Positions 2,996 to 10,754 of a DNA stretch of 64,000 nt are shown here, piece by piece; the first letter of the stretch is position 1; each line of letters opens with the position of its first letter. This DNA comes from Octopus vulgaris (taxonomy: Eukaryota). Position numbers and translations under genes: made by a program. The stretch covers positions 57,846,001 through 57,910,000 of the forward strand of contig OX597817.1 in assembly GCA_951406725.2 (NCBI GenBank), read 5' to 3'. The notes beneath the pieces were generated by a model. It searched no databases, was not told the DNA's origin, and saw only the letters and a list, made by a program, of their open reading frames with translations.

Positions 2996-3894
2996 CTCTA
3001 AAAAGCTGGATTTCCCAAACAATTTAGTCAAGTTGTAGAACCAAACAACAATCGACTTTTAAGCTTACTCTGCACACCAGAACAAATACACAAATATTTA
3101 CAGAAAACAGAATTATTGACAACACTTGACAACCAGTACCATATAACCATAAAACTAGCAGATGCCATGGCCCCAGACGAACCCCTCCCCTCCTGCCACA
3201 TTAACCGATTTCGAATGGCGCGTTACATTTTTCACACAATTAGGTTTGACACTGAGTTGTCTCCCCTGCCTTTACTTTGATACAGATATAGCTTGTTCAT
3301 CATTTTAACGTCTCCTTTTCAATACTTGCATGAGTCAGACGGAACTTGCTGCGGTATATATTCTACAACCAGGTGCCCTTCTAGTCGCCAACCTTCATCT
3401 GTTTCTAAGTAAGGTAATATTTTCCCTGGAAGACTCGAAACTAACAACTCCACTCGTATGACGATGCTCATTTACATACATCATGTCGAGACAAGGGTAC
3501 ACACACACAGGCTTCTTTCAGTTTCCACCTACCAAATCCATTCAAAAATCTTCGGTTGTAGGAGACACTTGTCTTAGATACTGCACAGTTGGACAGAACC
3601 TAAGGCTGCACGGTTGAGAAGCAAACTTAATTACATAGCCACACCTGTCAGCTTTCCTTGACACAAATATAACATCATTCAGTCATCTAATTTCATAGAC
3701 AAATATATTTGTATCAAGGCAGTATTTTATAGAAATAAATACTTCCTGTAAAGAACTTTCACCTGTTTTACAAAAGGTTTTTCTTTATTGCAAGTGCATT
3801 GAGTGCACAGAGATAGTGCACAGGCCGTAAAACAAGCCCAACAACATATTTTCTTTTGTTCAAATGGGCTCATATGAAGAAGGCTAACTTTCAT

Positions 3895-4310: not shown

Positions 4311-4580
4311 ATCTATAAATGCATGATGGACTTTTATGCAGTTTTTATCCAAGGCTCGTATGGGAGAAGAAACTTGCTCAAGGTGAACATTTAATAATAA
4401 AGTAATAAATTGAAATGTCTGTCTCCCTCACTATTTTTGCACACATGTACGCGTTTGCCTTAGACACAACATAAGACTCTGTGGTTGCCAGATGAACTAC
4501 TTAACCGCACACACCTGCCTGCACCTTTATTTTATATCCATTAAATTCACTCTTTATAACACAAAACGGTTTGTACTTAC

Positions 4581-4702
4581 GGTAGCGTAGGTGTTCTCTG
4601 TTTCTGGAACAGTTTCGTACATGTTTAGCAGTCTTTGTCGGGCATTTATACTGGATAGTGACTCCCTGGCTGTCACTTTGGTGTAGGGGTATTCTGCTTT
4701 AG
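4581..4702 (-). CDS. Coding exon 5 of PAG1/Cbp-like adaptor
   Basis: Acceptor tctctgtctactttag|CT, donor TACC|gtaagt. 122 nt, phase 1 in and phase 0 out. Encodes (P)KAEYPYTKVTARESLSSINARQRLLNMYETVPETENTYAT. Confidence 0.88.
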
Positions 4703-5465
4703 CTAAAGTAGACAGAGAAGAAAAGAAATATTAAGGTAGAGGAGAGGGTTATGGCAAATGTGAGGGAGGGGGTTACAGGAGGCTAGGGTTTAAAAGAATA
4801 CAAGTTTATGGGGTGGATGTTTTGGCACTGCCTATTTGGTGGCTCTGATTCTCTTTTATGGGTGTGAGGAGAGGGAAAGGGTTTATGTCAATCAAGTTCA
4901 ATTAATAAATTTTAATGACCCACTCCTGCCCTTCTCTTTCCATTTTTGCGTATGTGTGTGTGTTTGCCACTAGTGCCAAAGCCATGAATGTTCAAGAACT
5001 GGTCAAATCATCCTCATTATCAAAATCCAAACAGCTGTGCCCAGTTTGCAGCACTTCTGAAATGGACAGGGAGAGGATGAAGAACAACAAAACCCCAACA
5101 CATGGACTCTTAGAGTAGGAAGCAGTGCAGAGGTAGTCTTCAACGTTTGGCCATTCAATTTCTGTATTCTTCAAATTTCCAAAAGGTCAATGAGTAACAA
5201 AGTTGAACAGACAGATCTCAAGACCCACCTGGATGCACACAAAGAAAACTTTCATTTCTTTTTACATTTGCAGACCAAACAGAGACGAAAATCAAAGAGA
5301 GGAATTTTAAAAAGAGATTTGAATAAGGACATTAAGTTAAAAGTGACATCAAAGACCAGGTTCAGTTGTTTGTAGCAGAATGTTTTTTTTCTACAAGCAA
5401 TGAAGGCTGACAGCTGATAATGTTAATCTGGTCAATGGATTAAATCTTGTGGTCAGTGGTGAGAC

Positions 5466-6025
5466 CAACTCTTTTGTTACCATATTTCTGTTGAAATAAG
5501 GAAGAATTTGTCAAAATAACTTTGTCGTTTTTAAGCTGAAGTTTGGAATGTAAATCAACATGTAATTTTGATGAAATTGTTTTAATTTTTTTTTTTAACT
5601 TTATCGTGCTGCTACTGCATAACTCTCTCTGAGAAATTTTGAAATGCAATCATTCTAATTTTGTAGAACAGTGAATTTATTTCATTTGAAATTCGATAAG
5701 TTTCCAACAGCGATTTAGCACCAACAGCTAGCAAGGCCAAGCTACTCCGGACTGATGAAGTGCAACTACCCTGAAACTAGTCTCTGGGTGCTGGCTTTGT
5801 TGGGTGGAGGTGCTTATCTCCCCTGTTTGAAAACTTAAGGACACAGAACGTTTGTGTCATGTAGCCAACTAGAAACGGTGTTTCTTGGGGCTAAATAGCA
5901 GTAGCACTTTTCCTTTTCATGGGGCTGCAATATTAAGTTGGCAACAAGCCATCACTTTATGTTTTGATTACTTTAAAACATGAAGATTATAACTTAGAAC
6001 CAGGGGTTGGTATCAAAAGGGTTAA
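5466..6025. mobile_element. piggyBac-like (TTAA-flanked) MITE interrupted by a ~360-bp insert
   Basis: Ends CTCTTTTGTTACC and GGTATCAAAAGGGTTAA match the ~230-bp copies at 38965-39196 and 45547-45774. Sequence ~5597-5960 is absent from those copies. Confidence 0.65.
5746..5788 (+). ncRNA. Minimal type-I hammerhead ribozyme (intact core)
   Basis: Stem I UCCGGA/UCUGGG; CUGAUGA at 5752-5758; stem II AGUG/CCCU (one mismatch); GAAA at 5773-5776; palindromic stem III ACUAGU; GUC cleavage triplet ending at 5782. Confidence 0.8.
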
Positions 6026-6409
6026 AAGATCAGAGGGACAGCAGACGAGTAAAGTGGTCAGCTTCAGCAGGAAATGTGAGAGGGAAACATAATATAATGA
6101 TCCCACAGTAGATTACAGGTACTGATTGATCTTGTATGCAGGATAAGTGGAGACTATGGCTTCACTTGACCTTCTTCAAAGAGAAAGATAAGTGACAATA
6201 GGCTTGAGAAATCACTTAGAGTTGGTGGTGAAGTCATGATATTCATACATTTCCCAATAAAAAAAAAGTGGTTTCAAGTGAGAGTGGAATCATGGGCTAG
6301 GGTCACCGAGAAGTTATTGAGTATGGCACGATAAGTGACCAGTAAGTGTGGATATTGTGCAATACATTGATCATTCTAAATTTGCAGAATATACAATATT
6401 GGCCACTTT

Positions 6410-6552
6410 ACTGGTGGGTGTGACCATTGGACCACTGAAGCTTGACCTAACACTAGTGGGTGTGGCCAGTGGACCACTGAATCTGGACTTAACACTAGTG
6501 GGTGTGGCCAATGGACCACTGACTGGGCCTAACACTAGTGGGTGTGGCCACT
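6410..6552. repeat. ~42-bp tandem minisatellite (~3.3 units)
   Basis: Unit ACTAGTGGGTGTGGCCAxTGGACCACTGA...CTAAC repeated. It explains ORF 6348-6578. Confidence 0.85.
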
Positions 6553-6824
6553 ATCAACACACAAAGCCTGTTTTATGAGACAAGTGTGTAGCAAAGTGGG
6601 CAGATGAGTGGGGATAGTGGTGGCAATGAAGGATTGAACCATGGAAGGAGGAGGAGAAAGTAGAAGGAAGAGTGAGAGATGAAAGCTGGAAGTCCACAAC
6701 TGCAAAATAAACCATGATTACGTTCACAGAATTAGTGAAAAATCTTTATGTATTAAAACATGTAGTGGTGGTCATATAGGAGATAATGGTAGAGGTTGTA
6801 TAACTGGGGTGGGGTGGGGGGATG

Positions 6825-7137
6825 TATTGGATTGCCAGATAAATTTGTTTTTTTTCCCACATTTATTTTATTCCCTTCCAATGTTATTTGAATTAATGCA
6901 AAAACATTTTTATCAACAACGGCATGGAAATGAAGACGTGGCTTGAAGAATTTCTCAAGTCAAGATCCAGTGATTTCTACTGTCAAGGCATTGGCAAGCT
7001 GATGGAGCAGTGAGTTATGAACAACGAAGGGGAATATATTATTGACTGGGTTGTGAAAATTGTAGATGATAAATAAAGATTAAAATAAATGAAAAAAAAA
7101 AAAAAAGAGATGGACAAAATAATCTGATAACCTGATA
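6825..7137 (+). mobile_element. Internally deleted mariner (MITE) with transposase C-terminus
   Basis: Imperfect TIRs TATTGGATTGCCAGATAAATTTGTT and GACAAAATAATCTGATAACCTGATA. Interior reads MKTWLEEFLKSRSSDFYCQGIGKLMEQ*VMNNEGEYIID, the mariner C-terminal signature. Confidence 0.75.
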
Positions 7138-7225
7138 GAAGCATAGGTTGTAGTGTGGGGACTAAAAGGGTAGTGTTGGTGTTGGGGTGTGGTAGTGTAA
7201 GGTAATAATCTGAACATTTACTTAC

Positions 7226-8289
7226 GTGGCTGAGCAACAGGCTCTGGTAAAAGGATGGGACCAGCTCCAGCTGGAGCAGCATCCACATGATCTGGTGGCG
7301 GGTTGTCACGGTTGAGGAAGTCCTCCTCCTTGTAGGCCCGCGGTGGTTCTGGTGGTGGTGCCATCAGTATATCAGGGGGTACATCTAGGGTTACAGCGAT
7401 ATTGTTCGGGCTTCTTGGCAACTTGTTCACTGTAGCGTAGTCGTCCTCGACAATGTGACCTGGCAGGTCATCAGGAGACAGGGGTGATGTGGTCTCGGGG
7501 ACTGCTATGTTGGCCGACGCTCCTGTTGCTGCGGCTATCGGCAGTAATACTGGCCCCGCCGCACCACAGCAGCCGTCCGTCGGTCTGCCGTCCACGCTAG
7601 AGTAAGGGTCCTCTACATCGGGTCTTGCCAGTACAAGGTCTCCCGGGATCTTGGAATACGGGTCGTCCGTGTCGTCGTCGCCGGGTACAATACTATAGGA
7701 GATGTCACGGAATGTCGCATCTGTCGGAGTGAGGGCCAGAGCCAGTGGGGGCGCTGCTGGTCGCTTCTTGCCGAGCCTTAGCGATGCATAAGTATTGTCT
7801 GCATCATCATCATCCTCTTCATCACCATCAACAGAGGCGTACAACTGCTCACTGCCATAGTTATCAAAGTCAGCCTGCGTCAATGTGATGCAGCCACTCT
7901 TCTTCACCACAACCGATGATGATGCTGTCCCCACACGGTCATACGCCGTGTCGTACGTATTCTCCCCTTCCTCTTCCACTCCCTCCTGCTCCTCGCGTCT
8001 CCGCACATCATTGTTGTTGTTGTTGTTGTTGCAACTGGTGCCTTTGCCACCAGTTCCAGTCCCTGGCTGTCCAATGTGGTTGTAAGGGTCCGGGTCCTTG
8101 TTCACCCCGTCCTCACTGGCTGAATTACAAGCGGGCAAGTGGCAGCTCTTGCGGTTACCATTGGGGAGTACATTGGGTGACTGGTTGACCATAGTGACAT
8201 CAGGTAATGGGTGACTGGTGGATGGACCAGGGGGAGACGGCAATTGACGACCATTTGGTAGCACGGAACCATCCATGGAACTAGGTCTG
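7226..8289 (-). CDS. Coding exon 4 (1064 nt) of PAG1/Cbp-like adaptor: acidic, Pro-rich, multi-tyrosine cytoplasmic region
   Basis: GC-rich 352-aa ORF. Acceptor ttttctcttcaacag|CAG, donor CCAC|gtaagt, phase 2 in and phase 1 out. Motifs RQLPSPP, YNHI, YDRV, YASV, YASL, YSIV, YSKI, YSSV, YATV, PPPEPPR. Confidence 0.93.
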
Positions 8290-8398
8290 CTGTTGAAGAG
8301 AAAAAAAAAACAGATATTAATACAGTTCTATATTTAAGGGATGAGGAATTATGAACATTATTTACATTTGATAGCTATTTGTCCTCATCTTGTTTGTT

Positions 8399-8444
8399 AA
8401 CACAATGTTTTGACTGATATACCCTTCAGCCTTCATCAGGTGTC
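8399..8444 (-). ncRNA. Degenerate minimal hammerhead ribozyme in inverted pLTR
   Basis: Minus strand reads GACAC CUGAUGA A GGCUG...CAGUC AAAA CAUU GUGUU. GAAA has mutated to AAAA. Confidence 0.65.
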
Positions 8445-8715
8445 TTGGGGAAATTTTGAGCCTGGGTCCTCATTCCTAAGGTATTTGTTCTTAAAGAAAC
8501 TAAAAGAAGCAGCACATATGCTTGGACACAACAACCTCCTAAGCAGACTGAGTGCAGATATGAGTAGCATATGGGAACCAGTATTAAGGAAGGATAGGAA
8601 AATATTAGATTTATAAGCCCTAAAACTTCACTCCATAATTGCCCATGCGCATATGTAACCCCAAGATTCCGAGTTCGACTCCAGGCAGTGACCTGAATAA
8701 TAATAATAACATGTA

Positions 8716-9208: not shown

Positions 9209-9256
9209 TCGGAAAAATACCTTAGGAATGAGAACCCAGGTTTGAAATTTCCCCAA

Positions 9257-9299
9257 GACACCTGATGAAGGCTGGAGGGTATATCAGCCGAAACGTGTT
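9257..9299 (+). ncRNA. Minimal hammerhead ribozyme in pLTR (cleavage site eroded)
   Basis: GACAC CUGAUGA A GGCUG-loop-CAGCC GAAA C GUGUU. Relative to the inverted copy it lacks ~3 nt at the stem III/cleavage triplet. Confidence 0.7.
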
Positions 9300-10754
9300 A
9301 ATAACAAACAAGATGAGGACAAATATCCGTCAAATATAAATAATGTAAAAAAATATAGATATTAATAACAATTTGTTGCACAACAAGAAAAAGCAAAACG
9401 GCACAGACAACAATATATTACTGGTATTTACTTGATGAATCCCCCCTCTTCCTCTTGTGAAGATGCGTAGCTTAGTGGTTAGGGTGCTTGGCTCATGATC
9501 ATAAGGTTGTGAGTTCAATTCCTGGCGGTGCATTGTGGCCTTGAGAGCAAGACACTTTATTCCCTGTTGCTCCAGTAATTCAGTACCAGTAATTAAAAGG
9601 GTCAGCCATGTCTCATTCTGTGTCCAGCTGAATCTTCCTTAGAACTAAATTAAAGGTACATGGGTCTGTGGAGCGCTCAGCCACCTGCACGCTAATTCCA
9701 CGAGCAGGCTAACACCTGTTGTCATAATCAATGGAGTGCCAGCACTTCCTCTGTAGGGTCCTGAAATGGGTCACCAACGACTCGTCTAGAGGTCACAGCA
9801 TAAAGAGGTTTGTGTAAGGAAGGACATCCATTTGTAAAACCATGTCCGAACAAATACGACGCACACAACAGAGCCGGTTGGTGTTTCTCTGCTGTGCATG
9901 CTACATCAGTGGTTCCCAAAGTGGGCCGTGAAAAGATCCAGGTGGGTGTTGAAGTAAAATGGGGTGATAATGGGGCAATGGATGCAAAAAAAAAACAAAG
10001 AAAATAAAGGGTTAATTAGGTCAAGATTTATTTGTGTTGGTTCTAAGGTCACATTCCTAGTGTCCCCACCCCACCACCACAGACATAAACCATTTTCTGC
10101 TGTAAATTCAAAACATCATCATCGTTTAACGTCCGCTTTCCATGCAAGACCTCAGTCAAATCGTCCAACCCATGCTAGCATGGAAAGCGGACGTTAAATG
10201 ATGATGATAATGTTTCATCATCATCTGTGCTACATGATTGTGAAACCAGTCCAACCCATGCTAGCATGGGAAAAGAGATGTAAAATGATGTTGATGATAA
10301 TGATATCTATCTAGCTTAGCATACAAAGATTTGCACGAAATACATGGTAAGATTTTCAGCAAGAGGTGGACTAGGCTTGTAAGAGCATGCTCATGGTTCT
10401 GTTTTAGAACTTGGTGGGCACAGGTTCAACCCTTCAATTCCTTGATACAGTTAAGAACCTTTGGGAGCTCCTCAGCATCACAGTTATCCAGTTCATCAAC
10501 CACACCCTTCCCTTCATCCACCTTGGATGATCAGTGAAGGCCAATGAAACAGCAACCTTTTTTTTTTCTAGACAAAACGATTAAATATGGTTAAAAAAAG
10601 AAAAAATTTAATTCCTATCTGTAAAAATCTATGCCAGCTGATGAGGTCGGCCTGGTCAGATTACACTATACTAATGAAATTTAATAGATTAAAGAAATAT
10701 TTGGAATTGTCCCTGGTCTACGAATAATGGGAATTTCCTTTCTCAACAATGAGA

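Follow-up and report, generated by a model that had tools for sequence, protein, structure and literature searches.

The insert at 5598-5960 of the window, by which we mean the whole 64,000-nucleotide stretch of Octopus vulgaris DNA that was analyzed, is probably an aged copy of a retrozyme with an internal snRNA-type promoter; the family appears to be spread by Penelope-type copying, and a Tx1/L1-type LINE inserts at its predicted transcription start and likely rides along with it. A retrozyme family had been proposed in a first, sequence-only reading, and this part stood, with dispersed copies, a 356-bp unit, head-to-tail partial tandems, and compensatory stem changes between subfamilies and variants. 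Neither of the two outcomes that it had named as grounds for rejection was observed. Three things had escaped that reading: a footprint of Penelope-type insertion, a promoter motif of the snRNA type, and a LINE with the unit as its target. The features are listed in Table 1.

Table 1. Features in and around the retrozyme copy (window coordinates)
Feature	Position	Strand	Remark
Host intron, 2,523 bp	4703..7225	-	between exons 7226-8289 and 4579-4702; spliced contigs
Host MITE, left part	5467..5588	.	terminal inverted repeat at 5467
Retrozyme copy	5598..5960	+	356-bp unit 5598-5953 plus 7-nt repeat of the unit start
55-nt tail between ends E1 (5604) and E2 (5659)	5605..5659	+	181 of 211 outward ends at E1 or E2
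PSE-like (snRNA-promoter-like) site	5661..5681	+	core 5667-5672
Extended stem I rod enclosing the hammerhead	5717..5814	+	
Predicted transcription start and segment duplicated by LINE insertion	5725..5742	+	empty in the window copy
Type I hammerhead	5747..5787	+	predicted from sequence
Stem I	5747-5751/5783-5787	+	5 bp
Hammerhead core	CUGAUGA 5752-5758, GAAA 5773-5776	+	motifs at these coordinates
Stem II	5759-5762/5769-5772	+	4 bp, mismatch at 5761
Stem III, palindromic, 2-bp	5776-5781	+	predicted cut after 5782
Host MITE, right part	5961..6026	.	with its terminal inverted repeat

The insert, its family, and the hammerhead

The claim that the insert interrupts a MITE was confirmed. Both halves of the host MITE, which is approximately 200 bp long, aligned in order to insert-free copies, and the element was continuous and lacked the insert in all 14 of the other genomic copies that were fetched, as well as in a further copy within the window. 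Its ends in other copies were of the TTAA-CCCTTT type, and we take it to be piggyBac-like. Reads bridged 5573-6004, and no clear target duplication was found at the insertion in the window. The 3' end of the insert coincided with the family end E1 (5604 = 5960), and 23 of its 356 sites differed from the majority of its subfamily (6.5% divergence).

The insert had also been placed within an intron, and this was borne out by contigs of four runs from two studies, presumed to be RNA, in which 4702 was joined to 7226 with GT..AG borders on the minus strand. The insert is antisense to the host gene, so the ribozyme strand is absent from the host pre-mRNA. The large exon of the host gene had no Pfam match; a terminal exon near 4994-5058 had been a guess and was rejected, as it was without support from the spliced contigs. 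Contigs of presumed-RNA runs matched the retrozyme family, with only a thin match to the window locus; none of the runs with a match had RNA as its recorded type. The 5953-5598 unit junction occurred in one presumed-RNA contig, and since DNA runs carried the same junction, this contig is no evidence for circles or for an expression level.

Other repeats were observed in the window. A short tandem repeat of approximately 42 bp lay at 6410-6550, in the same intron as the insert, and a weak tRNA-like SINE head (16.8 bits, below the cut-off) at 9466-9527. On the minus strand, positions 60-414 held a fragment that presumably resembles a mariner transposase. Positions 8355-8486 and 9215-9346 formed an inverted pair, 88% complementary, of a different, Penelope-type hammerhead repeat, which was very deep in presumed-RNA contigs. 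The unit had no similarity to these Penelope-type arms at 8.4 and 9.3 kb, from which it had been held to be distinct.

A genome-wide search for copies gave 2,544 first-look candidates. Among the best 40, which were scored, full-length copies were 84-89% identical and no long tandem arrays were found; adjacent partial matches overlapped by 7 nt, which defined a head-to-tail unit of 356 bp. Searches with exact motifs of 26 and 31 bases located 127 and 60 further places, respectively, with none for the reversed controls. Of 151 loci fetched, 17 duplicates were dropped, leaving 134 non-redundant loci for the counts below; a subset of 81 loci was picked by a 3' motif alone. Median divergence from the family majority was 8.5%. 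The unit was low in GC, lacked LTR, PBS, and PPT, and was of a length within the 150-450 bp given for non-LTR retrozymes; as had been claimed for the segment, it held no frame of 80 aa or more. The family was also present in DNA of a second organism, and two homologous variants were found, variant B (approximately 350 bp, 4,581 candidates) and variant C. Insertions were mostly dispersed and 0.3-2.4 units long, and tandems with at least two ribozymes were rare (L010, L126, L008, L457, and L458; L232 and L242 in variant B). These results supported classification of the family as a dispersed non-LTR retrozyme, as judged from sequence.

The hammerhead, rod, and distal-pairing motifs described earlier were all in place, and the type I core with three stems was present across copies. 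When the named structure including the rod was laid over 32 copies, 87% of cells were paired, versus 33-45% when it was slid along the alignment. The fold of 5597-5960 was better than 100 of 100 shuffles (z = -4.0), and as a circle the window copy gave z = -4.4 and the family majority -8.6. The hammerhead had been called intact, which was correct for the core nucleotides and not for stem II: the window copy carries a U.C mismatch at 5761/5770 instead of the A-U or G-C pair of the family, and its stem II hairpin was predicted at +3.3 kcal/mol versus -1.8 for the family majority, with pair probabilities of at most 0.19 versus at least 0.98. Among 105 copies, this pair was A-U in 54, G-C in 20, A.C in 12, G-U in 9, and other in 10. 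For the middle pair of stem II, one subfamily had A-U where another had G-C, and the compensatory signal at 5761/5770 is one subfamily event. In variant B the stem I strands and the stem III palindrome were different, with pairing retained; the closing pair of stem II, usually G-C, was A-U in family A and mostly unpaired in variant B.

The sequence-only reading had looked to hammerhead models and covariation for confirmation, and neither supplied it. Rfam gave no hammerhead match at the gathering threshold or at an E-value of 10; in the 32-copy alignment there was no covariation above shuffles (187/500), and RNAalifold recovered neither the hammerhead nor covariation. The core was kept in 20 of 36 unbiased copies, and the core together with all nine tested pairs in 9 of 36. 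Conservation of the core in this set was marginal (4.8% versus 7.3%, p 0.04), and the decay of dispersed copies was almost neutral.

A hammerhead with a palindromic 2-bp stem III requires a second copy for cleavage, according to the available text of PMC4209133, and the retrozyme would likewise be cleaved only as a dimer. Transcripts of at least two units would release 356-nt monomers that could be ligated into circles, and RNA with a single ribozyme would stay uncut. Because the window copy is a monomer, release of a circle from it would be impossible; it is aged and probably inactive, with the core intact, and in itself it is ordinary debris.

Insertion footprint of the unit

The outward 3' ends of the insertions were strongly concentrated: at the 134 loci, 96 ends lay at E2, 85 at E1, and 30 elsewhere. 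Two inverted arms were present in 77 of the 134 insertions. Where both ends of a two-armed insertion were at these sites (n = 54), the combination was E1/E2 in 53 cases, E1/E1 in one, and E2/E2 in none (p 6e-15), and the pairing was E1/E2 in 35 of 35 cases in the 81 loci picked by the 3' motif alone. The insertion targets were (TA)n and AT-rich DNA, with TATATA at 88 of 181 E1/E2 ends versus 323 of 2,680 control windows (12%). Rare alleles common to repeated segments amounted to 17% within a locus versus 4.3% between loci, as expected if both segments came from one template.

Penelope-like elements, in the available text of 10.1101/2021.04.23.441226, form partial tandems, carry a 5' copy in inverted orientation, and have a tail at only one of their ends. 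In that of PMC11167929, the purified Penelope protein initiates reverse transcription at two positions inside the RNA, which delimit the tail, and its DNA cleavage is directed to AT-rich sequence. A tail on one end, an inverted 5' arm, 5' truncation, and an AT-rich target were all found in the retrozyme copies. The insertions of the unit thus match, at the level of sequence, the published Penelope-like signature, and we infer that the enzyme is of this type and that E1 and E2 are its start sites. Copying would begin at either of two fixed positions within the RNA, 55 nt from each other, with insertion into AT-rich DNA, often as two inverted arms, one from each start site. As part of this explanation, we propose that the insert in the window is the product of one copying round from E1 into the AT-rich MITE.

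Penelope-type ends on the copies could also mean that the unit is the solo pLTR of an autonomous Penelope element outside our sample and not a free retrozyme. Retrozymes and pLTRs are related in Xenopus, in the portion of the literature available, and scoring covered the best 40 of some 2,500 candidates per search, both of which leave room for this reading. However, arms that extended upstream continued into another unit or a LINE and never into a Penelope ORF, 49 of 219 pieces were longer than one unit (3 of 219 crossed two cut sites), and the hammerhead, with its short stem II and 2-bp stem III, is of the canonical tandem-repeat type, unlike pLTR motifs, which have a long stem II. A Penelope peptide search of 276 loci matched four, none with an ORF inside the insertion: the matches were to the peptide's own source, to one neighbor across a (TA)n run, and twice weak. 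We therefore consider the solo pLTR very unlikely, in agreement with the earlier reading. One autonomous Penelope-type family was sampled (L357-L386); it was abundant and young (15,605 candidates, 150 scored, 30 loci fetched), with open frames of up to 934 aa and two 3' ends in (TA)n, and in these 30 loci of one family no terminal sequence in common with the unit was found. A hammerhead-like motif was observed in its 3' region, on the antisense strand.

The 5' ends of the arms bear on the template. They did not pile up at the cut site (7 ends in the 10-nt bin; 7 and 3 in its neighbors), nor at the predicted +1, which was the 5' end of 2 of 135 LINE-free arms; 36 of the 135 ran past it. One-round arms of 356 nt numbered 1 of 142 in the set without full-length selection, too few to test. 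Ten pieces starting at 5776-5792 gave no evident sign of hybrids joined to another ribozyme at the cut site. Between 5808 and 5860 of the unit, at the foot of the long rod, arm 5' ends were about twice as frequent as just upstream, and the reverse transcriptase may stall on the rod structure there.

The missing pile-up at the cut site, together with cDNA that crosses this site in 110 of 219 pieces, would also suit a SINE-like repeat mobilized by Penelope from linear multimers, with a hammerhead that is already non-functional and without circles. The available text of PMC11167929 reports that hammerhead cleavage is dispensable for insertion by the purified Penelope protein, and eight of nine Xenopus retrozyme dimers did not cleave, according to the part of the source available. 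Such a repeat is nevertheless unlikely, as the core and stems are kept across clearly diverged variants that have different stem III palindromes. The arms that pass +1 without stopping and the absence of long arrays fit circles, and mildly favor circular templates over linear multimers.

A predicted promoter and a LINE inserted at its start

The motif ATCAG(T/C) was located at -57 to -61 in 20 of 20 U1 loci and in 17 of 20 U2 loci. A matrix built from six snRNA promoter types placed its best site in the family majority at -58 from 5725, with 14.0 bits; 0 of 20,000 random windows reached 14 bits. The best site in the window copy was also at -58, with 9.7 bits, and its core is changed at 5668 (AACAGT, where the family and the U1/U2 promoters have ATCAGT). 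In variant B the site at -59 ranked second, and on variant C the matrix failed (-0.6 bits). A spacing of about 55-60 nt between PSE and +1 was present in families A and B. These results suggested that transcription likely proceeds from an internal snRNA-type promoter and would start 58 nt downstream of the PSE-like motif, near 5725. One U1 promoter type (L425, G000:C14:51663237) aligned to positions 5642-5721 of the majority with 62% identity over 85 columns (E 0.017), and 15 identical bases spanning the U1 +1 matched majority 5707-5721. The likeness is a weak hint that the promoter was possibly captured from U1.

At 7 of the 134 loci the retrozyme sequence started at or close to 5725 and was preceded by an AATAAA-like end, which belonged to the 3' end of a LINE in five cases and to an ORF1-like derivative in two. 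The LINE is approximately 5.1 kb long, with a zinc-knuckle ORF1 and an APE-RT-zf-RVT ORF2. RVT_1 and zf-RVT scored above the cut-off; APE and two of three knuckles were below it in decayed copies, and full-length relatives carried all three ORF2 domains. The nearest named relative was BAC82613.1 (34% over 403 aa), which we take to be a Tx1-clade element. The two ORF1-like derivatives (L215, G000:C2, near 71.135 Mb; L216, G000:C5, near 94.2 Mb) were approximately 1.7 kb long and had an ORF1-like frame and an AATAAA end, without RT, at the same retrozyme site; they probably derive from the LINE as non-autonomous elements.

Full-length LINEs interrupted the unit and were flanked by a duplication of 17-18 bp; this was so in retrozyme variants A (L211), B (L204 and L209), and C (L459), which are diverged from one another. 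Of 30 loci collected by the LINE 3' end, which included two near-duplicate pairs, 26 continued into the hammerhead unit, three into the first target bases, and one was interrupted. The three (L173, L195, and L196), where the retrozyme target start was followed by unrelated sequence, may be further targets or, alternatively, nested elements. Among 30 loci collected by the LINE 5' end, this end was intact in 21, and in 20 of these, read by eye, it followed the target: 12 came after an upstream unit half, 8 after another LINE and the duplication, in tandem LINE arrays, and one was ambiguous. A sister LINE (79-81% identical) lay exactly at +1 in 2 of the 20 U2 loci, both among the three exceptions to the PSE motif. 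Tx1 elements target DNA transposons, LTR elements, snRNA genes, and microsatellites, as listed in the available text of PMC4494074. In 80 metagenome loci of distant relatives of the LINE (mostly 24-34% identity) there was one hammerhead-like match, far from the ORF end. A metagenome contig (L321 229) carried a hammerhead-like motif whose palindrome, ACUAGU, is that of stem III in the window copy; a distant LINE relative lay 4.7 kb downstream of the motif.

Nearly all LINE ends examined were linked to the unit, and LINE-bearing and LINE-free copies had the same 3' ends. The LINE might thus itself be the mobilizing partner, its RT copying both the unit and LINE-unit read-through RNA without a Penelope enzyme; LINEs have been named as possible retrozyme partners in the available text of PMC7229834, and no Penelope partner was found in the one autonomous family sampled. 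Its own insertions, however, had 17-18-bp duplications at a fixed site, whereas those of the unit were in (TA)n, with inverted duplicated arms and ends fixed at two internal positions, which is the Penelope signature. We regard mobilization by the LINE as distinctly unlikely and retain Penelope-type copying as the preferred reading.

With Penelope-type copying, the LINE could be carried as cargo. Eighteen 10-kb regions with a 5'-truncated LINE, two of which duplicated each other, were compared: 13 had neither the upstream target half nor the duplication, four had both halves, and one lacked the downstream unit. A truncated LINE that had inserted by itself would be flanked by the upstream target half and the duplication, as in L151, L183, and L219; these three, which keep both halves, indicated that the LINE also inserts by itself. 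In L178, L191, L192, and L036 the LINE 3' end lay inside a two-armed E1/E2 insertion, and in L178 and L191 it was present in both arms. LINE 3' ends within two-armed insertions and the 13 of 18 regions without an upstream half suggested that the retrozyme has likely carried the LINE along to new sites. On the simplest reading, RNA comprising LINE plus unit was copied from the start sites of the retrozyme itself: LINE-bearing transcripts would read through the weak AATAAA into the downstream unit half, with its Penelope start sites, and LINE 3' pieces would thereby be copied. At some truncated loci the upstream half could have been removed by later insertions or loss. Penelope termini can move enclosed host genes, according to the available text of PMC3846280. 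The LINEs tied to the three retrozyme variants in L200, L201, and L206 were all 5'-truncated at 3122 of the L204 element.

A further-reaching reading, which we offer tentatively and with some doubt, is a three-tier parasitism: a retrozyme with circular RNA, having captured an snRNA-type promoter, would be inserted from two start sites by a Penelope enzyme, and a LINE that seeks snRNA-type starts would use it as promoter, landing pad, and vehicle, with most truncated LINEs spread by the Penelope enzyme, possibly as whole-LINE circles made by the ribozyme.

Relation to known systems

Mobilization of animal retrozymes by Penelope elements has so far been proposed from co-occurrence and sequence likeness. 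The octopus insertions add a countable mechanistic footprint and two RNA sites at which copying should start, so that the proposal can be tested with purified Penelope protein. If a LINE is indeed aimed at predicted snRNA-type starts of differing sequence and is partly moved by the enzyme of another element, the reading of the copy number and activity of such LINEs would change. The titles and abstract openings searched, with subscription journals, Repbase entries, and bioRxiv supplements outside the search, contained no octopus retrozyme, no Tx1 element targeting a retrozyme, and no LINE carried by Penelope machinery, and the words 'retrozyme', 'hammerhead', and 'ribozyme' were absent from the supplement of the repeat annotation paper PMC13282606. 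The system amounts to a variation on kinds already described (non-LTR retrozyme, Penelope cargo, and target-specific Tx1), combined in a manner absent from the titles and abstract openings searched.

As far as the available text of the sources allows comparison, the family is most like metazoan non-LTR retrozymes, above all the 350-390-bp mussel repeats (PMC7229834; bioRxiv 10.64898/2026.07.22.740005), with which it has in common an ORF-less, low-GC unit with a type I hammerhead, head-to-tail copies, a self-paired monomer, and Penelope elements in the same genome. The octopus family differs from them in its mostly dispersed insertions with a strict two-ended footprint, in the A-U closing pair of stem II, and in having a site-specific LINE aboard. 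With Penelope-like elements, as presented in the accessible portions of 10.1101/2021.04.23.441226, PMC11167929, and PMC3846280, it shares partial tandems, 5' truncation, an inverted 5' arm, a one-ended tail, and AT-rich targets, whereas the octopus unit has no ORF and its tail is 55 nt long versus 30-40. The same portions state that Penelope terminal repeats suffice to move an enclosed sequence in trans; unlike such cargo, that of the octopus unit is another retrotransposon and is joined at one side only.

The rider LINE resembles the target-specific Tx1-clade LINEs in the available text of PMC4494074 (Tx1 in Tx1D, Keno in U2, Tx1-Mar, and Kibi/Koshi) in its two ORFs, APE-type endonuclease, RT, and C-terminal zinc knuckle, as well as in a fixed site within a multicopy repeat and in tandem insertions separated by the duplication. 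It differs from them in that its targets, whose sequences differ, are the +1 predicted for a ribozyme repeat and that of U2, and in showing signs of passive spread by the mobilizing enzyme of its own target. Newt satellite 2, which the available text of PMC2220036 cites as having an snRNA-type promoter, is likewise a hammerhead repeat with such a promoter inside it and a dimer-type ribozyme, whereas the octopus promoter is predicted from motif and spacing only.
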